The translations under genes and the position numbers were made by a program. This document shows, one piece after another, positions 100 to 46,353 of a stretch of DNA of 46,353 nucleotides. The notes beneath the pieces were generated by a model. The model did no database searches. It saw nothing but the letters and a program-made list of their open reading frames with translations, and had not been told where the DNA came from. The DNA is taken from IMG/VR virus record IMGVR_UViG_3300045988_042187; one strand, given 5' to 3'. How positions within the stretch are numbered: the stretch's first letter is position 1; each line of letters opens with the position of its first letter. The stretch is from a virus.

Positions 100-115
100 C
101 CGAAAGCGCAGATAG
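2..115 (+). CDS. 3' end of the -1 frameshift extension of the tail assembly chaperone; continues from 46169..46353 across the circular junction
   Basis: The frame is open from the window start (SLPVKERAFVIASIDARCAAERKKEAELKNKANRKRR, stop TAG at 113-115). The same frame is open at the window end from 46166. Confidence 0.7.
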   Translation, partial: SLPVKERAFVIASIDARCAAERKKEAELKNKANRKRR

Positions 116-133
116 CACTTTTGGCTCCAGCTC

Positions 134-163
134 TTGACATTGTGAACTGATTTAGCCTAAAAT
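134..163 (+). promoter_or_regulatory. Sigma-70-like promoter, TTGACA-18 nt-TAAAAT, inside the tail operon upstream of ORF 194..541
   Basis: TTGACA at 134-139 and TAAAAT at 158-163. Followed by the inverted repeat GGTGTT-atc-AACACC (164-178) and an AAGGAGG RBS. Confidence 0.5.
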
Positions 164-193
164 GGTGTTATCAACACCAAGGAGGGCTACATC

Positions 194-541
194 ATGGGAG
201 CAAAAAATATGGTCATCGCTGGTGACTACATGGGAAAACCCATCACTGGCATTGGCGGCGTGGTGCAAATCTATGTTGACCGCAAAAACTACATCCTCCT
301 GGATAAGTTTGGCGTGGACAGCTATGATGTCATCACAGAGGATACCCGCAAAAGCGCTGCCAGCGGCATTGCAAGAGGTGCCGTTGGTGCGGCTCTGTTA
401 GGACCAGTTGGCTTGCTGGCAGGGCTATCCGCAAAAAACAAAAGCACCGTCACTGTTGCGGTCCGTTTCAAAGACGGAAAAAACAGCCTGCTTGAAATGG
501 ATGACAAGGTTTACAAGAACTTTGTCCGTGCCATGTTTTAA
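194..541 (+). CDS. Hypothetical 115-aa protein with a Gly/Ala-rich hydrophobic segment (GAVGAALLGPVGLLAGL); moron-like insert between the tail chaperone and the tape measure
   Basis: ORF with AAGGAGG 7 nt upstream of the ATG and its own promoter-like element. No recognisable catalytic motif. Confidence 0.65.
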   Translation: MGAKNMVIAGDYMGKPITGIGGVVQIYVDRKNYILLDKFGVDSYDVITEDTRKSAASGIARGAVGAALLGPVGLLAGLSAKNKSTVTVAVRFKDGKNSLLEMDDKVYKNFVRAMF

Positions 542-614
542 GCACTGAGCGCTTTTAGCGCCCTCACAGTAAGTGGGGGCGCTATTTTTATTCCCCACGA
601 AAGGAGGCGGACTT

Positions 615-2627
615 GTGGCCACAATACGGTCCCAAATGGTCCTCAATGACCAAGTAACTGGCGTGCTCAAGAACATCACAAGGGCTCTGGATATTACCCT
701 GCACAGCTTTGAGCAGATGCAGGATGCGAGTGCCAATGCTGTTGATGTGCGCCTCCTCAACCAAGCGAGGGCTGGCCTGGGAGAGGTCAATCTTGCCGTC
801 CGTGAGATGGAGGAAAACTACCGCCGTGCGGCCCAGCAGGAGCAGCAGGTCACACGAAACATCCGCCAGAGCACCCAAGCAGAACAACAGCTCAATGCCA
901 GCATCCGGGGCGGCAATGGCGCACTGGATGGCATGGTGGGCAAGGCCAAAAATCTGGCGGCAACCATCGGCGCAAGTGTTGGCCTCAAAAAGCTCATAGA
1001 GCTCTCTGACCAGATGACCAGCACCACCGCCCGCCTGTCTTTCCTTGTGGATGACGGCGGCAGCGTGGATGAGCTGGAGGCCAAAATCATGGCCTCTGCC
1101 CAGCGCTCCAGAGCTGCCTACCTTGACACGGCATCTGCTATTGCCAGCATGGGCGCAAACGCTGGGGCCGCTTTCACCTCCAATGATGAACTCATTGCTT
1201 TCATGGAGCAGGTCAACAAGCAGTTTGTCATTGGCGGCGCATCCGCCCAAGGGCAGGCGGCGGCCATGCTCCAGCTCACCCAGGCAATGGCGGCAGGCGC
1301 TCTGAGAGGCGAGGAGCTAAACTCCATCCTTGAAAATGCGCCCGGCATCGCCAGAGCCATTGAGCAGTACATGGGCATTGCAGAGGGCTCCATCAAGTCC
1401 TACGCAGAAAAGGGGGCCGTGTCGGCAACCATTGTGAAAAATGCGCTCCTGTCCATCGCAGATGAAACCAATGCCAAGTTTAACGGTATGGCCATGACCT
1501 GGGGGCAGGTGTGGACCCAAATGGGCAATATCGCCCTAAAGGTGACACGACCCCTACTCACTGCCATCAACTGGCTTGCCAACAATCTCTCTGTGATTGG
1601 CCCCATCTTGCTGGGTCTGGGTGCCGCTTTTCTGGTATTCCAAGTAGCGGCGCATGCCACGGCAGCATACAACGATGTGGTCAACCTCCTCAGCATTGGC
1701 TTTGGCGTGTTGACCGGAAACACAGCGGCGGCCTCTGCGGCGGTATTCACCTTTAACTCCGCTCTGCTGGCATCTCCCATCACTTGGATAATCATGCTCA
1801 TTGCCGTTGTCATCGGCCTGTTCTACGGCGTGGTGGCCATCATCAACAAGGTCACCGGCTCCTCCATCTCCGCCACGGGGCTCATCTGCGGGGCCATTGC
1901 GGTGGCAGGAGCTTTCATTGGCAACACCGTGATTGGCCTGCTCAATGCCCTCATTCAGTACATCTGGGCCATCTTCGTTGCCCCGTTTCTTGGCATCGTG
2001 GAATGGATTTTGAATGTGTGCAACGGAGGTTTCAACAGTTTTGGTGATGCCGTGGCTAACCTCATCGGTCAAATCATTGGCTGGTTTTTGAACTTGGGCA
2101 AGGTGGTCACCACCATCATTGATGCCATTTTCGGCACCAACTGGACGGCTGGCTTGGAGAGTTTGCAAAGCTCTGTAACCGCCTGGGGCAAGAATGAAAA
2201 TGCCATCACCCTTGACAAGAACGCTCCCACCATTGACTACCGTTTTGAATACGGGGACGCATGGGCGGCGGGTAACGATTTTGGCAAGGGCATTGATGCC
2301 AAAATTGGTGGAATGTTCAACACGGGCGGTCTGGGTGACAGCAGTGGTTTTGACCTTGGTGGCATCGCCGCCTATACGGGAGAAACCGCCGACAATACCG
2401 GCAAGACCGCTGATGCTCTGGCCGTGACAGAGGAACAGCTTGAATACCTGCGGGACATCGCAGAAAGGGATGCAATCAACCGTTTCACCACCGCAGAGGT
2501 CAAGATTGACATGACCGGCATGACCAACAGAATTGACGGCGGTGCTGATCTGGACGGCGTTATCAGCCAGCTCACCGAGGGCTTTACTGGGGCGCTGGTC
2601 ACCGCCGCTGAGGGGGTGCACGCATGA
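615..2627 (+). CDS. Tail tape measure protein
   Basis: Tape-measure N-terminal motif region (LTQAMAAGALRGEELNSILENAPGIARAIEQYMG), a central cluster of hydrophobic helices, and a position after the chaperone. I prefer the GTG at 615 (AAGGAGG at 601-607) to the ORF-track ATG at 573. Confidence 0.85.
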   Translation: MATIRSQMVLNDQVTGVLKNITRALDITLHSFEQMQDASANAVDVRLLNQARAGLGEVNLAVREMEENYRRAAQQEQQVTRNIRQSTQAEQQLNASIRGGNGALDGMVGKAKNLAATIGASVGLKKLIELSDQMTSTTARLSFLVDDGGSVDELEAKIMASAQRSRAAYLDTASAIASMGANAGAAFTSNDELIAFMEQVNKQFVIGGASAQGQAAAMLQLTQAMAAGALRGEELNSILENAPGIARAIEQYMGIAEGSIKSYAEKGAVSATIVKNALLSIADETNAKFNGMAMTWGQVWTQMGNIALKVTRPLLTAINWLANNLSVIGPILLGLGAAFLVFQVAAHATAAYNDVVNLLSIGFGVLTGNTAAASAAVFTFNSALLASPITWIIMLIAVVIGLFYGVVAIINKVTGSSISATGLICGAIAVAGAFIGNTVIGLLNALIQYIWAIFVAPFLGIVEWILNVCNGGFNSFGDAVANLIGQIIGWFLNLGKVVTTIIDAIFGTNWTAGLESLQSSVTAWGKNENAITLDKNAPTIDYRFEYGDAWAAGNDFGKGIDAKIGGMFNTGGLGDSSGFDLGGIAAYTGETADNTGKTADALAVTEEQLEYLRDIAERDAINRFTTAEVKIDMTGMTNRIDGGADLDGVISQLTEGFTGALVTAAEGVHA

Positions 2628-6872: not shown

Positions 6873-7667
6873 ATGCCCAATGAAACCAAAAACTATGGCA
6901 CCGTTATCACCACGGCGGGCGCTGCGCTAATCGCCAAGTGCATCTTGAACGGCGGCAAGGTCAACATCAAGACTGCTGCTGCCGGTGACGGCGGCGGTGA
7001 GTATTATGAGCCCACCGTGGCCCAGACCGCCCTCCGGGGCAAAAAGTGGGAGGGCGATGTGGCCAGCGCCGCAGTCAGCACCACCAACGCCAACATGATT
7101 GATGTGAAAATCACCATTGATGACAGCGTGGGTGGTTTCACCATCCGTGAGATGGGCCTCTTTGACGATGACGGCACGCTCATTGCCATCTGCAACACCC
7201 CCGACACAGAAAAGGTGTCCACGGATGGCGGCGTGTCCGGCAAGCTCACCATGATTATGCACATCGTGGTAGCGGATGCCTCCGTTGTCAGTTTCACCAT
7301 CACCCCGGCCCTGGACACGGTGAGCCGGGCGGAGATGGAGAGCGCCCTGGCAGAGCACAACACCAACGGCACCAGCCACTCCGACATCCGGGCGCTGGCG
7401 CTCAATGCTGTGCAGCAGGGCGATGTCTACACCAAGCCGGAGGTCAACGCTTTGGTGGGGGGCGCTGTGAATGAGCATAACAACTCCGACACAGCGCACG
7501 CCAGCATCCGTGTGGACCTCACGGGGCTGGATAGCCGCCTCAAGACGCTGGAGCTGAAATATGGCACTAATGTCACCGGCATCAGCTTTGAGGTCACCTT
7601 TGTTACGCTGACGGATGTAGTGGTCACCGGCGTATGGAATGAGGAACTTGGCCGAATTGAGTTTTAA
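6873..7667 (+). CDS. Tail fibre protein with a P2 gpH-like N-terminal baseplate-attachment domain
   Basis: The N-terminus (YGTVITTAGAALIAKCILNGGKVNI...FTIREMGLFDDDGTLIAI) resembles tail-fibre N-terminal domains. The C-terminal 51 aa are shared with ORF 9224..9502. Confidence 0.75.
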   Translation: MPNETKNYGTVITTAGAALIAKCILNGGKVNIKTAAAGDGGGEYYEPTVAQTALRGKKWEGDVASAAVSTTNANMIDVKITIDDSVGGFTIREMGLFDDDGTLIAICNTPDTEKVSTDGGVSGKLTMIMHIVVADASVVSFTITPALDTVSRAEMESALAEHNTNGTSHSDIRALALNAVQQGDVYTKPEVNALVGGAVNEHNNSDTAHASIRVDLTGLDSRLKTLELKYGTNVTGISFEVTFVTLTDVVVTGVWNEELGRIEF

Positions 7668-9223: not shown

Positions 9224-9502
9224 ATGGCAAAAAGGCCCTACCTTGATGACCTCCAGACAGCACGCCTCTGGGCAAAGGTCAAGGCCCTGGTTTCTCCTTT
9301 GAGCTCCAGAGTGACCACACTGGAGGGGCAGGTCCAGACCAACACCACGGACCTCTCCGGCCTGGCCACCCGTGTCCGCACGCTGGAGCTGAAATATGAC
9401 ACCAATGTCACCGGCAACTCCTGGAGCGTGGCTTTCACCAGCCTCTCCGGCGTGGTGGTCACCGGTGTGTGGAATGAAAGCCAAGGGAGGATTGAGTTTT
9501 AA
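9224..9502 (+). CDS. Small coiled-coil protein sharing the C-terminal module of fibre protein 6873..7667
   Basis: 34 of its last 51 residues are identical to the C-terminus of ORF 6873..7667 (hand alignment), ending VVVTGVWNE..GRIEF. Confidence 0.65.
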   Translation: MAKRPYLDDLQTARLWAKVKALVSPLSSRVTTLEGQVQTNTTDLSGLATRVRTLELKYDTNVTGNSWSVAFTSLSGVVVTGVWNESQGRIEF

Positions 9503-10054
9503 GTGCCCAACTATGACATCATACCGCTTGCCACTGATCTGCTGGACTACACCATCCAGCGGGTCAAGGTCAAAGAGCCCCAATACACCAAGGTCAAGGC
9601 CTATGTGATGGAAAACGGCCAGATGGTGGAAAAGGAGCTCTTTGAGAAAATCAAGGATGACGGCAAGCCTCACTTTCCCAAGAGCCAGACTTTCCACATG
9701 TGCGCTGACATGCAGCGCATGGCCAGCGCCATCCTCCAGAAATGCAACTCCGCTGATGGCCGTTATTTTGAAACTGAGTATGAGGAACGCCTCAAGGACC
9801 TTGATGAGTTCATCGTCCTCTGCGACACTCTCAACCAGTACATCAACCTGAGCTATAAGCGCAAGTACATCTCTGGTGACCAGTGCCACTACTGGGCAGA
9901 GCTGGTGCGCCCGGTCCGTCAAAAGGCTTTCAACTGGAAACGCAATGACAGCAACCGTGCCGCCGCTCTGCGTGAGGCAAAGGCCAACCAGGAGCTTGCC
10001 AAAATGGGCCAGATGGCCCAGCAAATTGCTGAGGCCCTGGCCCGCAACCCCTGA
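9503..10054 (+). CDS. avd: Avd-like DGR accessory protein (four-helix-bundle family) with an insertion
   Basis: Lies immediately upstream of the TR. The segment HFPKSQTFHMCADMQRMASAILQKCNSADG resembles the FPK..e....q..RAa.Si..NiaEG signature of Avd / S23-IVS four-helix-bundle proteins. Basic C-terminal helix. Confidence 0.55.
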   Translation: MPNYDIIPLATDLLDYTIQRVKVKEPQYTKVKAYVMENGQMVEKELFEKIKDDGKPHFPKSQTFHMCADMQRMASAILQKCNSADGRYFETEYEERLKDLDEFIVLCDTLNQYINLSYKRKYISGDQCHYWAELVRPVRQKAFNWKRNDSNRAAALREAKANQELAKMGQMAQQIAEALARNP

Positions 10055-10109
10055 AAGGATATACCAGCCGAGAGCTGTTATATTTGGGTATGACCTATTT
10101 TTCCACTGT

Positions 10110-10210
10110 GCTCCCCGAACACGAACAACACCAACAACGCCGTTTACTTGAACACCAATGGCAATGTCAACAACAACAACTGCACCAACACCAACGGGTC
10201 CCGCCCCGCT
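10110..10210 (+). repeat. DGR template repeat (TR), 101 nt with 34 adenines
   Basis: Aligns without gaps to 11928..12028 and, over its 3' 65 nt, to 19007..19071. In the target frame it encodes 14 AAY (Asn) codons and ends with GGGTCCCGCCCCGCT, which is shared by all three copies. Confidence 0.9.
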
Positions 10211-10435
10211 CTGATGGTAAGGCCTGACTGAGTAGGCCCAAAGCCCAAAACCGTGCCGTCCATCACATCAAAGGAGGTCATACCCAGCCTTGGTGAGGCC
10301 AAGGCAAACACATTGCGCTGATGCCCCGCTGCTTTCCAGAAAAGTGGCGGGGCTACTGGTCCTATCATGCGGCACCTACACAGCGCATGAGGAGAGGCTG
10401 GCCAGCCGAACACTGATAGGGGGCCATCCGTTTGT
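10211..10435 (+). ncRNA. TR-to-RT spacer, probably the structured part of the DGR RNA
   Basis: Non-coding and rich in GC stem-loops (GGCCTgactgagtAGGCC, GCCTTGGtgaggCCAAGGC, GCCCCGC...GCGGGGC). This is the position where DGR RNAs carry their priming spacer. Confidence 0.45.
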
Positions 10436-11461
10436 ATGAAATTTTCTGAAATATGCACCTTTGCGGTGATCTATGCGGCATACCTGGCCGCCCGGCGGGG
10501 CAAACGCTCCAGAGCCGCCACCGCACACTATGAGGTGCGCCTGCTTGAGAACATCGTCAACCTGGTCTATATCCTAAAAACCAAGATTTACAGGCCCGGT
10601 GTGTTTCGTGTGTCCTATGTCTATGAGCCCAAGAAAAGGCTGGTGCAGGCACCCGCTTTTGTGGACAAGGTGGTCCAGCACGCCATAGTGGACAATCTCC
10701 TCTATGACCGCATCACCCGCAGTTTCATCCTGGACAACTACGCATCCCAAAAGAACAAGGGCCTGCACTTCGGCCTGGACCGGCTCAAAGGATTTTTCAC
10801 GGACTACTGGAATAAGCACCGCACCGCTGAGGGCTGGGTGCTCAAGTGTGATGTCCGCCATTTCTTTGCAAGCATCAACCATGACAAGCTCAAGGAAAAG
10901 CTCAAAAAGCTGGACCTTGAGCCTGTTGTTTATGACCTGCTTTGCATCTATATTGACTGCTCTGACGGCCTGCCGCTGGGGTATCAGACATCACAGCTCT
11001 TTGCCCTCCTGTTCCTGGATGACTTTGACCACTTCGTCAAGGAACAGCTCCACATCCAATACTATGGCCGCTACATGGATGACTTTTTCCTCATCCACCC
11101 GGACAAGGAATACCTGCAATTCTGCCTCCGGGAAATACGGGCCTACATGGATAGCCTGGGGCTGGAACTGAATGAGAAAACCCAAATCTTTCCCATCCGC
11201 AATGGCATTGACTTTTTGGGCTTTCACACCTACCTGACGGAAAGCGGCAAGGTCATCCGCAAGCTGCGGCACAGCAGCATCAAGCGGATGCGTGCCAAGC
11301 TCCGCCACTGGGAAAAGGAATACCCGGCGGGCCTGGTGACCCGTGAGCAAATCCTGCAATCCTGGCAGGCGTGGGATGCCCACGCCGCACATGGCAACAC
11401 TTGGGCCCTGCGCCAACAGGTGCGGGACCGTGTGCAAAATATTCTAAAGGAGGAAATCTGA
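10436..11461 (+). CDS. DGR reverse transcriptase
   Basis: Contains YMDD (GRYMDDFFLIH) and the DGR-type motif 4 (LPLGYQTSQLFALLFL). Adjacent to a TR/VR pair. Confidence 0.92.
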   Translation: MKFSEICTFAVIYAAYLAARRGKRSRAATAHYEVRLLENIVNLVYILKTKIYRPGVFRVSYVYEPKKRLVQAPAFVDKVVQHAIVDNLLYDRITRSFILDNYASQKNKGLHFGLDRLKGFFTDYWNKHRTAEGWVLKCDVRHFFASINHDKLKEKLKKLDLEPVVYDLLCIYIDCSDGLPLGYQTSQLFALLFLDDFDHFVKEQLHIQYYGRYMDDFFLIHPDKEYLQFCLREIRAYMDSLGLELNEKTQIFPIRNGIDFLGFHTYLTESGKVIRKLRHSSIKRMRAKLRHWEKEYPAGLVTREQILQSWQAWDAHAAHGNTWALRQQVRDRVQNILKEEI

Positions 11462-11464
11462 TCT

Positions 11465-12685
11465 ATGGCCACAACCACCCTGGGCAACAAAGCCGTGGGC
11501 AGCATCATCCAGCTTAAGGAAAACGGCAAGCTGGTGAGCTTTTATGTTGCCAAGCACAACTATGAAAACGGCCTCAACGGAATGGGCCGCACGCTGGTGG
11601 TCCGCAAGGACTGCTATGACACCCGCCAGTGGCACAGCTCCAATGTCAATGCCTACGCCTCCAGCGCCATTGATAGCTGGCTCAACGGCACCTACAAAAA
11701 CCTGCTTGATGCAGACATCCGTGGGGTCATCGGCACCACGAAAATCAAGTACACCCCCGGCAACGGCAACAACACCGTTGGCACGCTCCAGCGGGCCATT
11801 TTCCTGCTGTCTGCCACTGAGCTGAACAGATCGGCAAGCTGGTTTAATGTGGAGGGCACGGCGCTGGAAATCGCCAGCTCTCTCCAGATCGCCTACATGA
11901 ACGGCTCCGCCGTTGTTCAGTGGACCCGCTCCCCGGGCACGGGCAGCACCGTCAGCGCCGTTTGCTGGAACATCGTTGGCGGTATCAACAACGGCGGCTG
12001 CACCGACACCCACGGGTCCCGCCCCGCTTTCACTCTCCCCTCCACCCTCTCTGTGAGCGATGACGGCACTGTGTCCGTCAACACTGCGCCCACCATCACC
12101 AGCTCCACGGCCAACGGCTCCAACCTTGGCACCAAGACGGCGGGCTTTAACTTCCAGTACACGGTCAACGATGTGGACGGGGACGCTGTGACGGTCAAGG
12201 AGTACCTGGACAATGTGCTCAAGCGCACCTACACCGCAACCCTGGGCCAGGTCAACACATTCCAAGCTGTCACGGCTGCCAACTGGCAGAAAATCCTCAA
12301 CGGCTCCCACACCCTCAAGGTGGTGGCCTCTGACGGCAAGGCTGACAGCGCCGCCTACACGGTGACCTTTGCCAAAAAGGTGACCAAGGCCACTGTCACG
12401 CTGGCAGCGCCGCTGGCGGCGGATGATGCCATTTCTGTGATGGTTATGAACATCGTGGGCACCCTGCCTGCGGATGCGGTCATGGAGGTGCTGGTCACCA
12501 ACAACGCCAAGGACACCACCCCCGTCTGGGAGGATGCCACGGCGGATGTCAAGAATGGCGCAAACCATGTGTTTACCAATAAGACCGCCGCCAACGGCTT
12601 TGCGTTCAACTTCAAGCTCTCTGTTGAGCGTGGAGCCAGCGACACCGGCGGCTATATTTCTAACATCGGAGGTGCTTTTGAATAA
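11465..12685 (+). CDS. DGR target protein 1: N-terminal variable ligand-binding domain (ends ...CTDTHGSRPAF) followed by about 215 aa of Ig-like-looking C-terminal domains; probable receptor-binding or fibre protein
   Basis: Contains VR1 and has a strong RBS. Its N-terminal ~190 aa are paralogous to ORF 18592..19173. Location in the fibre module. Confidence 0.85.
   Translation: MATTTLGNKAVGSIIQLKENGKLVSFYVAKHNYENGLNGMGRTLVVRKDCYDTRQWHSSNVNAYASSAIDSWLNGTYKNLLDADIRGVIGTTKIKYTPGNGNNTVGTLQRAIFLLSATELNRSASWFNVEGTALEIASSLQIAYMNGSAVVQWTRSPGTGSTVSAVCWNIVGGINNGGCTDTHGSRPAFTLPSTLSVSDDGTVSVNTAPTITSSTANGSNLGTKTAGFNFQYTVNDVDGDAVTVKEYLDNVLKRTYTATLGQVNTFQAVTAANWQKILNGSHTLKVVASDGKADSAAYTVTFAKKVTKATVTLAAPLAADDAISVMVMNIVGTLPADAVMEVLVTNNAKDTTPVWEDATADVKNGANHVFTNKTAANGFAFNFKLSVERGASDTGGYISNIGGAFE
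11928..12028 (+). repeat. DGR variable repeat 1 (VR1)
   Basis: Hand alignment to the TR gives 22 mismatches in 101 nt. Of these, 19 are at TR adenines and 3 are at non-A positions (11967, 11973, 11984). Confidence 0.9.
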
Positions 12686-12873
12686 TGGCTGTTTACTATG
12701 ACAACACAAGCCTCAAGGCAAAGCATGAGCGCAAGCGTTCCCTGGAGGAACTGACCAAGGAAAACAAAGAGCTCAAGACCCGGCTCCAGGCAACGGAGGA
12801 GGACCTGACCAACACCCAGGTGGCCCTCACGGAGGTCTATGAGATGCTGGCGGGAGGTGGAGAGAATGGCTAA
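12685..12873 (+). CDS. Small coiled-coil protein
   Basis: ORF with a GGAGG RBS and an ATG overlapping the upstream stop. Confidence 0.55.
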   Translation: MAVYYDNTSLKAKHERKRSLEELTKENKELKTRLQATEEDLTNTQVALTEVYEMLAGGGENG

Positions 12874-12979
12874 GGTATATGCCGCCCTCATCCGCAAGGG
12901 CCTCAAGACCCTGGATGATGTCCCCGCCAACCTGCGTGACGCTGTTGCCAAGCTGCTGGAGGAGAGCACCGATGCGTGA
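12866..12979 (+). CDS. 37-aa XkdX/CD1375-like small protein, copy 1 (below the ORF-track length cutoff)
   Basis: Translated by hand as MAKVYAALIRKGLKTLDDVPANLRDAVAKLLEESTDA. Paralogous to the next small ORF. Confidence 0.55.
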   Translation: MAKVYAALIRKGLKTLDDVPANLRDAVAKLLEESTDA

Positions 12980-13028
12980 GCTCCGCCTGCGGCTTGCTTT
13001 ATTTCTGTTGAGAAAGGAGGTGCAAGAC

Positions 13029-13145
13029 ATGGCTGTTGTGTATGCTACCCTCATCATCAAGGGCCGCAAGACCATTGACCAGGTGCCCGCTCTGCTGCGT
13101 AAGCAGGTGGAGGAAATCCTGGCAGACCTGGAGGTTGAGGTCTAA
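13029..13145 (+). CDS. 38-aa XkdX/CD1375-like small protein, copy 2
   Basis: MAVVYATLIIKGRKTIDQVPALLRKQVEEILADLEVEV, with an AAAGGAGG RBS. It is an internal ATG of track ORF 12879..13145. Confidence 0.6.
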   Translation: MAVVYATLIIKGRKTIDQVPALLRKQVEEILADLEVEV

Positions 13146-16801: not shown

Positions 16802-17848
16802 ATGAATTACAAGGGCTTTCATCAACTGCAATGGGAGGACCGCCTGGTCATTGAAAAGATGCTCAAGGTGGGTGACAGCAAGGCCAAGATCGCTGAGGCG
16901 CTGGGCGTGTGCAAAAAGACCATCTACAACGAAATCAAACGGGGATGGACCCAACAGATGACCTCTGACTATGAGTTTATCTGGTGCTACTGCCCGGAGA
17001 TGGCGGAGCGCAAATACCAGGAAAACCTCCGGGCCAAGGGGCCGGACCTCAAGATTGGCAATGACATTGACTTTGCAAACTATGTGGAGCAGAAAATTGT
17101 GGAGGAGCACTATTCTCCCGCCGCTTTGTTGGCAGAGCTCAAGGCAAAGCCGCCCCAGTTTGACACCACGGTCTGTGAGGCCACGCTCTACAATTACATC
17201 TACCGGGGTGATGTGTTCCTGGTCCTCAACCCGGAGCACCTGCACGAAAAGGGCCGCCGCCACTATGGTGAGAAATACGGTGAACAACGGAACGCTGCCA
17301 GAGCCGCCAAAGGCCCCCGCATTGATAAGCGTGACCCCATCATCAACTCCCGCACTACTTTTGGCCACTGGGAGATGGACAGCGTGATGGGCACCGTGGG
17401 CTCCAGCCGGGCGCTGGTGGTGCTCACGGAACGGCTCACCAGGGCGGGCATCATCCTCCCGGTGCCAGACCATACCGCTGCCAGCGTGGTCCGGGCGCTC
17501 AACGGTCTGGAGCGCCGCCTGGGCAAGGACTTCTACCCCATGTTTCAGAGCATCACGGTGGACAATGGCTGTGAGTTTCAAGACTACGATGGTATGGAAA
17601 AGGCCTGCCGCCGGAAAGGAAAGCGTACCACCGTTTACTACTGCCACCCGCACGCACCACATGAGCGTGGCAGCAACGAGAACATGAACAGGATAATAAG
17701 GCGGTTTTTCCCCAAGGGCACCAACTTTGATGAGGTGCCTATCTCAGAGATACGCCGGGCAGAGGAGTGGATGAACAACTATCCACGGGAGGTGCTGGGG
17801 TGGCAGACAGCGGCCACCCTCCTGCGGAGCTACATGAGCGCCTGCTGA
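16802..17848 (+). CDS. IS30-family DDE transposase
   Basis: N-terminal HTH (KIAEALGVCKKTIYNEIKRG) plus catalytic-region motifs HWEMDSV, TVDNGCEF and HERGSNENMNRIIRRFFPKGTNF. Confidence 0.9.
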   Translation: MNYKGFHQLQWEDRLVIEKMLKVGDSKAKIAEALGVCKKTIYNEIKRGWTQQMTSDYEFIWCYCPEMAERKYQENLRAKGPDLKIGNDIDFANYVEQKIVEEHYSPAALLAELKAKPPQFDTTVCEATLYNYIYRGDVFLVLNPEHLHEKGRRHYGEKYGEQRNAARAAKGPRIDKRDPIINSRTTFGHWEMDSVMGTVGSSRALVVLTERLTRAGIILPVPDHTAASVVRALNGLERRLGKDFYPMFQSITVDNGCEFQDYDGMEKACRRKGKRTTVYYCHPHAPHERGSNENMNRIIRRFFPKGTNFDEVPISEIRRAEEWMNNYPREVLGWQTAATLLRSYMSAC

Positions 17849-17999: not shown

Positions 18000-18028
18000 C
18001 TTGACTTTTTGCTAAGCAGCCCCGATAA
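18000..18028 (+). promoter_or_regulatory. Sigma-70 promoter TTGACT-17 nt-GATAAT
   Basis: Read directly. It shares the TTCTTGACTT context with 16004..16013 and 16442..16451. Confidence 0.6.
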
Positions 18029-18029
18029 T

Positions 18030-18072
18030 TGAGTTACACACCAAGAGATTGGTCGTGTAGCTCAATTTTTTT
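18030..18072 (+). terminator. 33-bp imperfect palindrome followed by a T8 run; either a terminator for read-through from the transposase or a protein-binding palindrome
   Basis: GAGTTACACACCAA-gaga-TTGGTCGTGTAGCTC, then AATTTTTTTT. The 5' arm starts 2 nt after the -10 element of the 18000 promoter. Confidence 0.5.
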
Positions 18073-18096
18073 TATGCCGGTAAGGAGGTGAACGCA

Positions 18097-18591: not shown

Positions 18592-19173
18592 ATGAAAACC
18601 GCTATTTCTAATGTGGCCCCCGGCCAGGTGGTCAAGTTTCATGGGGAACCCTGCATTGTGCTGGAGCACCGCACGGCTGGCACCTTGCTGGTGACCGCCG
18701 CCCAGATTAAGAGCTCTTTTGGCTCCACCAACAACTTTGCTGCCAGCTCTTTCCGTGAGCACCTCAACGGTGCCTTTGCGGATGCCCTGACTGAGGGCCA
18801 CGCTGATGAGCTCATCACCCGTGAGGTTGACCTCACCGCCCTCAACGGCTCCAAGGAGTACGGGAGCTGTGAGTGCAAGGTGGCCCCGCTGACCTTTGAT
18901 GAAATCCGCCGTTTCCACGGTCTGCTGCCCAAGCCTGAGAGCTGGGAGTGGAGCGCCACGCCCTGGAGCACCCCCTGCGTGGATGAGGATGATACCTGGG
19001 TCATGGGCTTGTACACCAATGGCAATGTCGGCGGCAGCCGCTGCACCGACACCGGCGGGTCCCGCCCCGCTTTCCTCATCCCCTCCCAGTATGCCGTGGA
19101 GGCTGATGGCGGCCTGGACCAGTACGCCACCAATGAGCTGATTGCGGAAATCAACCGCCGCATGAACGGTTAA
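18592..19173 (+). CDS. DGR target protein 2: a 193-aa stand-alone variable domain paralogous to the N-terminal domain of target 1
   Basis: Contains VR2. Motifs shared with target 1: (A/S)SS(A/F)..(W/H)LNG(T/A)(Y/F) and the ending CTDTGGSRPAF. Strong RBS, and no signal peptide visible. Confidence 0.85.
   Translation: MKTAISNVAPGQVVKFHGEPCIVLEHRTAGTLLVTAAQIKSSFGSTNNFAASSFREHLNGAFADALTEGHADELITREVDLTALNGSKEYGSCECKVAPLTFDEIRRFHGLLPKPESWEWSATPWSTPCVDEDDTWVMGLYTNGNVGGSRCTDTGGSRPAFLIPSQYAVEADGGLDQYATNELIAEINRRMNG
19007..19071 (+). repeat. DGR variable repeat 2 (VR2), 65 nt
   Basis: Hand alignment to TR 10146..10210 gives 12 mismatches, all at TR adenines. The terminal GGGTCCCGCCCCGCT is identical. 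Confidence 0.88.
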
Positions 19174-46254: not shown

Positions 46255-46353
46255 GAGCCTGCCCGTCAAGGAGCGTGCTTTTGTCATCGCCTCTATTGAT
46301 GCCCGCTGTGCGGCGGAGCGGAAAAAAGAGGCGGAACTCAAGAACAAAGCAAA
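46255..46353. repeat. Terminal direct repeat, copy 2 (identical to 1..99)
   Basis: Exact identity read by eye. Confidence 0.95.

Follow-up and report, generated by a model that had tools for sequence, protein, structure and literature searches.

The virus sequence IMGVR_UViG_3300045988_042187 (46,353 nt; this whole stretch is referred to below as the window) carries what we regard, with a probability of roughly 0.93, as a working diversity-generating retroelement (DGR) of a temperate myovirus. In this reading the DGR belongs to a gut Oscillospiraceae prophage and evidently rewrites the putative binding loops of two predicted lectin-type phage proteins. A template repeat (TR), a reverse transcriptase (RT), an accessory variability determinant (Avd) and two target genes, each with its own variable repeat (VR1 and VR2), are present in the window. 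The original prediction of a complete DGR, made up of avd, TR, RT and one VR1-bearing target, is borne out in that each of these components passes an independent test.

Template and variable repeats

The repeats and the genes that receive them are as follows (window coordinates).
10110-10210, + strand: TR, 101 nt, non-coding; 34 A, 40 C, 15 G, 12 T
11465-12685, + strand: target 1, 406 aa; N-terminal DUF6273 with VR1, then a Hoc-like C-terminal half
11928-12028, + strand: VR1, aa 155-188 of target 1
18592-19173, + strand: target 2, 193 aa, stand-alone DUF6273-type protein
19007-19071, + strand: VR2, 65 nt, matching TR 10146-10210; aa 139-160 of target 2

The TR aligns with VR1 without gaps over all 101 nt and with 22 mismatches, 19 of them at TR adenines (34 available; 16 A>G, 2 A>T and 1 A>C) and three among the 67 non-adenine bases (T10149G, C10155T and G10166A). 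The differences are thus enriched at template adenines (Fisher one-sided p = 9.8e-9), and the computed alignment reproduces the hand alignment of the original prediction in its length, adenine count and mismatches. An independent repeat search returned this pair as the top direct repeat of the window, and similarity drops to noise directly beyond the 101-nt limits. The 3′ 15 nt (GGGTCCCGCCCCGCT) are identical in TR and VR1 as had been claimed, the identical run actually extending to 17 nt (10194-10210); this GC-rich 17-nt end is the same in TR, VR1 and VR2, and divergence starts beyond it. Translated in the target-1 frame the TR reads SPNTNNTNNAVYLNTNGNVNNNNCTNTNGSRPA and contains the 14 AAY codons that had been counted (12 AAC and 2 AAT). 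All TR adenines stand at codon positions 1 or 2 and, as predicted, no codon is mutable to stop; the theoretical repertoire from the TR in VR1 is ~1.2e20 peptides. A gap of 225 nt separates the end of the TR from the start of the RT gene.

Both window strands were scanned for matches to the non-adenine positions of the TR, and this revealed VR2, which differs from the TR at 12 of the 22 adenine positions it covers and at no other base; beyond VR1 and VR2 the scan found no TR-like site on either strand of the whole window. The earlier account of the target was therefore right for VR1 and incomplete, as a second target with VR2 at 19007-19071 lies in the open reading frame (ORF) 18592-19173. Eight related viral contigs also have VR2, ~7 kb downstream of VR1, and in all of them it tracks the TR of its own lineage at non-adenine positions, the GC-rich 3′ end included. 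Its theoretical repertoire is up to ~2.5e12 peptides, with no stop codons possible. Among the target-2 homologues P0215, P0125, P0128 and P0160 (alignment A2, columns 160-200) some have a longer TR-like segment, e.g. SPNTNNTYSAVCLN, and some carry insertions opposite TPCVDEDDTWVMG of the window, so that VR2 varies between phages in its 5′ boundary.

Variation among close genomes

Relatives of the RT are encoded at 78 IMG/VR loci and 75 genome loci. Twelve of the viral loci could be aligned gaplessly to the whole cassette (~98.5% identity) and, with the window, gave a set of 13 close genomes, comparison of near-identical genomes being the nearest substitute for a read pileup. Polymorphic columns in this set number 0 of 101 in the TR and 39 of 101 in VR1, while Avd, the spacer between TR and RT, the RT and the rest of the target are 3-7% polymorphic. 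The hypervariability of VR1 is that of the template adenines: variation is seen at 32 of the 34 TR-adenine positions and at seven of the 67 others, all seven being singletons (Fisher p = 3e-17). When 57 distinct TR/VR1 pairs were pooled and each VR1 was compared with its own TR, 968 of 1964 adenine sites (49%) differed as against 81 of 3850 non-adenine sites (2.1%), and in seven pooled TR/VR2 pairs the corresponding figures were 67 of 144 and 0 of 304. The pooled substitutions were, in descending order, A>G, A>T and A>C. Lineage-specific non-adenine substitutions of the TR, including those in the GC-rich end, are mirrored in both VRs, a concerted transfer from template to targets. The scale of natural variation can be seen from single 90%-identity clusters, which hold 13,805 (target 1) and 15,778 (target 2) distinct sequences. 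As genomes that are ~1.5% apart elsewhere carry almost wholly different VR1 sequences, homing is therefore frequent on the timescale of their separation, and the comparison as a whole indicates frequent homing into both targets in nature.

Reverse transcriptase and Avd

The two protein components of the DGR are encoded on either side of the TR.
9503-10054, + strand: Avd, divergent long form, 183 aa
10436-11461, + strand: DGR reverse transcriptase, 341 aa; YMDD, LGYQTSQ; Pfam RVT_1, E = 7e-19

The RT had been identified as DGR-type from its YMDD and LGYQTSQ motifs, which are found at aa 213 and aa 181 respectively. Its closest solved structure is 8ub7_A, to which it aligns end to end (E = 1.1e-30) and whose sequence tblastn matches at 100% identity to brt of Bordetella phage BPP-1; the group II intron, retron and Drt3a RTs among the solved structures match at E>=9e-9. 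Judged by its sequence, the RT belongs to the DGR type.

The Avd-like gene matches the PHROG family phrog_3206 ('Avd protein of DGR') with E = 1.7e-19. An AlphaFold2 (AF2) model built on a 28-sequence alignment (pLDDT, the predicted local distance difference test score, 83.5) shows a bundle of helices into which a beta-hairpin is inserted at aa 27-50, the C-terminal helix being long. In Foldseek comparisons it superimposes on BPP-1 Avd (4dwl) with a template modelling (TM) score of 0.85 (target-normalised) and a root-mean-square deviation of 2.0 Å, and on the 23S-IVS four-helix proteins 2rld and 2gsc with TM scores of 0.84-0.89. The profile and the predicted fold thus both support the claim of an Avd-like gene. 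Pfam gave no match for the ORF itself at 0.01; against PDB sequences the Avd-family profile had no match and the single Avd sequence returned only noise. Directly upstream of Avd a 92-aa ORF (9224-9502) carries a copy of the ~50-aa C-terminal module of the tail-collar fibre protein encoded at 6873-7667, the shared module (window 9224-9502 and 7500-7667) having the pattern LELKY.TNVTG...VVVTGVWNE..GRIEF.

RNA structure around the template repeat

The following elements of the non-coding region are referred to in this section.
10085-10096, + strand: 5′ strand of a 12-bp stem that encloses the TR (helix 1), pairing with 10275-10286; by analogy the putative equivalent of the 'cPRT Stop' duplex
10211-10435, + strand: spacer (Sp), structured RNA between TR and RT
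10212-10217, + strand: UGAUGG, predicted template strand of a template:primer duplex (helix 5), its role proposed by analogy with the TR:Sp duplex of BPP-1
10275-10286, + strand: 3′ (Sp) strand of the TR-enclosing stem, pairing with 10085-10096

A 22-sequence alignment of the 380-nt non-coding region was folded with RNAalifold, with slid pairing partners and 500 shuffles as controls. The region is conserved and so is its structure: 65 pairs are predicted, 24 of them with compensatory double changes, and pairing holds in 97.8% of cells as against ~40% with slid partners, which yield 4-10 covarying pairs; none of the 500 shuffles reached the observed pairing values. In helix 1, which encloses the whole TR, all cells are paired and five of the 12 pairs show compensatory double changes. 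Helix 5 begins two nt past the end of the TR/VR homology and joins UGAUGG (10212-10217) to CCAUCA (10260-10265) in 6 bp that are paired in 100% of cells, with one compensatory and two wobble changes; an alternative register would use the invariant CAUCA at 10266-10270. In the BPP-1 ribonucleoprotein an avd:Sp duplex ('cPRT Stop', 11 bp; mean ~13 bp in 207 DGRs) adjoins a TR:Sp template:primer duplex, a terminal adenosine of which primes cDNA synthesis, and the layout of helices 1 and 5 matches these published duplexes.

A mechanism can be proposed in which the transcript of the TR upstream region, TR and spacer would fold such that the 12-bp stem (10085-10096/10275-10286) closes a TR-containing loop and the short duplex just 3′ of the TR (UGAUGG at 10212-10217 with the invariant CCAUCACAUCA tract) offers an adenosine as cis-primer. 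The RT, held by Avd, would copy the TR from ~10211/10210, the 3′ edge of the repeat, towards 10110, misincorporating opposite adenines, and the 12-bp stem would halt synthesis before 10096. The adenine-mutagenised cDNA would then replace the homologous segments in two genes, the GC-rich 3′ end that they share acting as anchor, with the full 101 nt entering VR1 of the tentaclin-type protein and only the 3′ 65 nt entering VR2 of the small lectin-type protein. By analogy with BPP-1 we infer where priming occurs, that the stem acts as a stop, what Avd does and by which route the cDNA is integrated.

No Rfam family reaches its gathering score and no tRNA was found in the whole window. The Rfam family RT-2 (RF03077) aligns at full length in the spacer (10218-10408) with 18.7 bits against a gathering threshold of 40 (E = 0.02-0.04), a match that misses the threshold, and the spacer has no match to RT-10, which Weinberg et al. 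located in the spacer of BPP-1. We found no literature linking the RT-2 RNA with DGRs. The viral contig L073 (1-11104) carries two complete DGR cassettes in tandem, one with a 1954-aa target, Avd, a true Rfam RT-2 RNA between Avd and RT (119.7 bits) and its own RT, and the other with an Avd and an RT that is 45% identical to the window RT.

The target proteins and what their diversification may serve

Pfam DUF6273 covers aa 41-193 of target 1 (E = 5e-25), VR1 being found where the domain ends on its C-terminal side, and aa 218-406 match the PHROG 'Hoc-like head decoration' family (E = 8e-85). Aligned from end to end it shares 44-49% identity with the targets of FP_Brigit, Lelie and FP_Toutatis. 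Searches for a Pfam immunoglobulin (Ig) domain in target 1, and of the target-family profile against PDB sequences, gave no match. Target 2 falls in phrog_9958 (E = 2.9e-42), to which the N-terminal half of target 1 belongs as well; the Pfam DUF6273 match of target 2 is weak (E = 0.005). The DGR had been placed inside the tail-fibre module, and it does adjoin the tail-fibre genes; target 1, however, is not a classical tail fibre, the combination of DUF6273 and a Hoc-like region being a tentaclin-type architecture (PMC10743442).

It is possible, although we consider the odds to be against it, that the diversified proteins are not host-receptor-binding tail proteins, and that target 1 would serve as a 'tentacle' adhesin, capsid- or virion-anchored, that binds mucus, host glycans or immune cells, and target 2 would be a non-structural protein. 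The Hoc-like C-terminal half of target 1 speaks for this, as do relatives of the protein that carry the same head-decoration annotation, and binding to epithelium or immune cells is among the hypotheses of the tentaclin paper (PMC10743442). So does the position of target 2, which lies outside the structural module, by the prophage junction, in a run with helix-turn-helix (HTH) and lytic transglycosylase genes. Target 1, on the other hand, follows directly on the tail-fibre genes and precedes the lysis genes. Moreover the DGR targets of established function in phages, such as Mtd of BPP-1, are receptor-binding proteins. The narrower proposal that target 2 is not a virion protein, and that one DGR would hence diversify both a virion adhesin and a protein of lysogeny or early infection, seems to us unlikely.

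Between target 1 and the lysis genes there is an 85-nt direct repeat with 72% identity (12853-12937 and 13016-13100), which results from two small paralogous ORFs in tandem (MAKVYAALIRKG... and MAVVYATLIIKG...). In FP_Toutatis the slot of these two ORFs is taken by an XkdX-family gene.

Evidence against a working element, and alternative explanations

Several observations weigh against a working DGR of this kind and should be set beside the evidence above. As regards the proteins, Avd matches NCBIfam DivGenRetAVD below the cutoff (E = 5e-5), and Pfam bAvd is reached in Avd homologues only (E = 8e-5 to 4e-4), again missing the curated cutoff; the protein is therefore a divergent member of the family. 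The AF2 model of target 1 (25-sequence alignment) had a pLDDT of only 34.8, so that the putative C-type lectin fold of the targets rests on the literature. As regards the repeats, comparison of TR, VR1 and VR2 showed no IMH/IMH* difference (IMH, initiation of mutagenic homing) inside the repeat, and a hairpin or cruciform after VR1 or VR2 was not significant (z = -0.6 and -1.5). The 'IMH-type' anchor of the original prediction accordingly stands as a GC-rich identical 3′ end and its label as an analogy only. To our knowledge the IMH/IMH* difference and the hairpin after the VR are defined for BPP-1 and are not universal among DGRs. The three non-adenine differences between TR and VR1 of the window are each private to it among the 13 close genomes, which suggests either time elapsed since the last homing or errors of the RT at non-adenine sites. 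Adenine-eroded TRs, with losses at adenine positions only, were found in three of 72 related TRs, and activity in this particular genome is argued from that of its relatives by sequence comparison.

The three eroded templates differ in their state. At L007:9675-9775 the TR has lost six adenines, the RT is intact and VR1 carries all six new bases; at L025:9675-9775 the TR has lost 16 adenines and the RT has a stop at W124; and at L058:4843-4943 the TR has lost 15 adenines and the RT is frameshifted near aa 112. Such erosion suggests that the template itself is now and then a recipient of homing or gene conversion, and it would be hit from time to time because TR and VRs share an identical 3′ anchor. 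If this is true, self-homing into the template would be a built-in route to DGR decay (two of the three eroded TRs go with a broken RT).

One could suppose from these observations that the DGR is a fossil, i.e. that homing has been lost in this genome and the VR differences were inherited from an active ancestor. The private non-adenine differences of VR1 and the decaying relatives L025 and L058 would fit this, as would a study of Faecalibacterium phages in which several DGR phages, including Lelie, showed no read-level variation. In the window, however, Avd, RT and both targets are intact ORFs, the TR retains all 34 adenines and is identical to the TR of 16 other loci, VR2 has no non-adenine mismatch, and VR1 differs almost entirely between genomes that are otherwise ~1.5% different, so that we consider a fossil improbable and keep to the reading of a working DGR. 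That the RT should instead belong to another retroelement or defence system (group II intron, retron or DRT/Abi) and the 101-nt repeat be an ordinary product of duplication or recombination is recommended only by sub-threshold NCBIfam matches (group II intron maturase, E = 2e-26, 92.8 bits against a cutoff of 300; Drt3a; retron RT) and has next to no probability, as none of these reaches its cutoff, BPP-1 Brt is the best full-length solved match by ~22 orders of magnitude before the next class, a protein of 341 aa has no space to accommodate a maturase or endonuclease domain, in the window no RNA of group II introns or retrons reaches the Rfam gathering threshold, and duplication does not yield adenine-restricted divergence (p = 1e-8 and 3e-17).

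Phage genome and prophage context

The last 99 nt of the window (46255-46353) are identical to the first 99 nt (1-99), i.e. an assembler overlap, and MT835552.1, an unannotated GenBank record that is 98.5% identical, is collinear across the joint; the sequence therefore represents a closed circular genome of ~46,254 bp. The genes lie on one strand and include those for tape measure, baseplate, tail fibres, sheath, portal, capsid, terminase, DNA polymerase, primase/helicase and endolysin. In the tape-measure region (window 105-2385) only 927-1517 aligns with the otherwise 98% identical MT835552.1, at 88.5%, which suggests that this region is mosaic or rearranged relative to that record.

Copies of the RT that are 99% identical occur within large contigs of Vescimonas sanitatis MH37-1 and other Oscillospiraceae. 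The homology of the bacterial contigs to the window ends at ~18012, 164 nt past an IS30-family gene, and in a 90-kb NCBI contig the HTH gene, a small ORF and target 2 stand next to genes of bacterial type. Given copies inside bacterial contigs and a junction by target 2, the phage is therefore temperate. In the prophage form target 2 lies just inside the left junction and the DGR core near the right end, ~37 kb from target 2 as measured to the TR, whereas in the circular form target 2 and the DGR core are 8.8 kb apart. The IS30-family DDE transposase gene (window 16802-17848, NCBIfam E = 2e-64), with the junction at about 18012-18080, occupies the slot of the phiC31-type recombinase of phage Lelie and may be the phage integrase rather than an inserted insertion sequence; a Pfam scan of ten further ORFs, which was not exhaustive, found no tyrosine or serine integrase.

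The practical value of this DGR lies in a lineage that is very abundant in human gut data, in which nature supplies 57 or more distinct TR/VR1 pairs and covariation supports the RNA scaffold. As a prophage of the cultured isolate V. sanitatis MH37-1 it offers a possible Gram-positive gut model, in which one could study how the cDNA reaches two targets, what keeps the template from self-homing and which ligands tentaclins bind.

Comparison with known systems

FP_Toutatis, Lelie and nd4/nd12 are published precedents for the avd-TR-RT-target order and for a tentaclin paired with a small DUF6273 target, and as gut phages are already known to have two-target DGRs of this composition the conceptual addition made here is small.

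With the prototype BPP-1 (mtd-avd-TR-brt) the window DGR shares an RT homologous to Brt over its full length, with (I/L)GxxxSQ and YMDD in both, the Avd fold, adenine-specific mutagenesis, a GC-rich 3′ end of the repeat, and a duplex between the sequences upstream and downstream of the TR that adjoins a short duplex at the TR 3′ end. It differs in having two targets, in a target placed downstream, not upstream, of the RT, and in a VR that is internal to target 1. In addition its Avd (183 aa) has a beta-hairpin insert and a longer C-terminal helix than BPP-1 Avd, there is no hairpin after the VR, and the spacer shows a weak resemblance to RT-2 with no match to RT-10.

The original prediction was thus correct that the layout differs from that of BPP-1. 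It is not unusual, however: in RefSeq the Toutatisvirus FP_Toutatis (NC_047915) is annotated with exactly the same order, and Lelie (PP479942) has it too, both Faecalibacterium phages showing the succession of tail fibres, Avd (~190 aa), TR, RT, target and lysis genes. Their downstream target is like target 1 (~410 aa, DUF6273 plus Hoc-like region, 44-45% identical over the full length), and for Lelie two DUF6273 targets, one large and one small, with two VRs are reported, as here, each VR standing at the C-terminal end of DUF6273. The Faecalibacterium prophage paper describes these large and small DUF6273 targets and uses the same comparative variation signature as was used here. The host here belongs to Oscillospiraceae such as Vescimonas rather than to Faecalibacterium, the phage lineage is also different, megablast detects no nucleotide similarity to FP_Toutatis or Lelie, and the IS30-family DDE gene stands at the position of the phiC31-type recombinase of Lelie. 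Lelie orf47 was considered as the small second target and rejected, BLASTP showing no similarity. In FP_Toutatis a 50-aa coding sequence labelled 'DUF6273 domain-containing protein' between Avd and RT (L155:3453-3605, NC_047915.1 49048-49200) is, to judge by its place and label, probably the non-coding TR annotated as a gene by mistake.

A further close parallel is found in gut myoviruses in which one DGR serves two targets, a DUF6273+Ig tentaclin whose VR lies near its 5′ end and a small protein that consists of DUF6273 only and has a shorter VR2; the FP_Toutatis and FP_Brigit phages are listed among the carriers of tentaclin genes, and tentaclins are described as having a C-terminal anchor domain of Ig-like type with a consensus of seven residues (PMC10743442). 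The phages nd4 and nd12 of that study are, as here, small myoviruses of ~46 kb with the VR in the N-terminal DUF6273 of target 1, followed in their case by Ig-like domains. Their tentaclins are longer (569 and 579 aa with three Ig-like domains, as against 406 aa for target 1), and the C-terminal half alone aligns with target 1, at 38-39% identity; the TR of nd4 has 25 adenines compared with 34 here. Their target 2 is likewise a small DUF6273-only protein with a shorter VR2, located at its 3′ end, and in nd4 and nd12, as in the phage described here, both VRs vary at TR adenines among related genomes.

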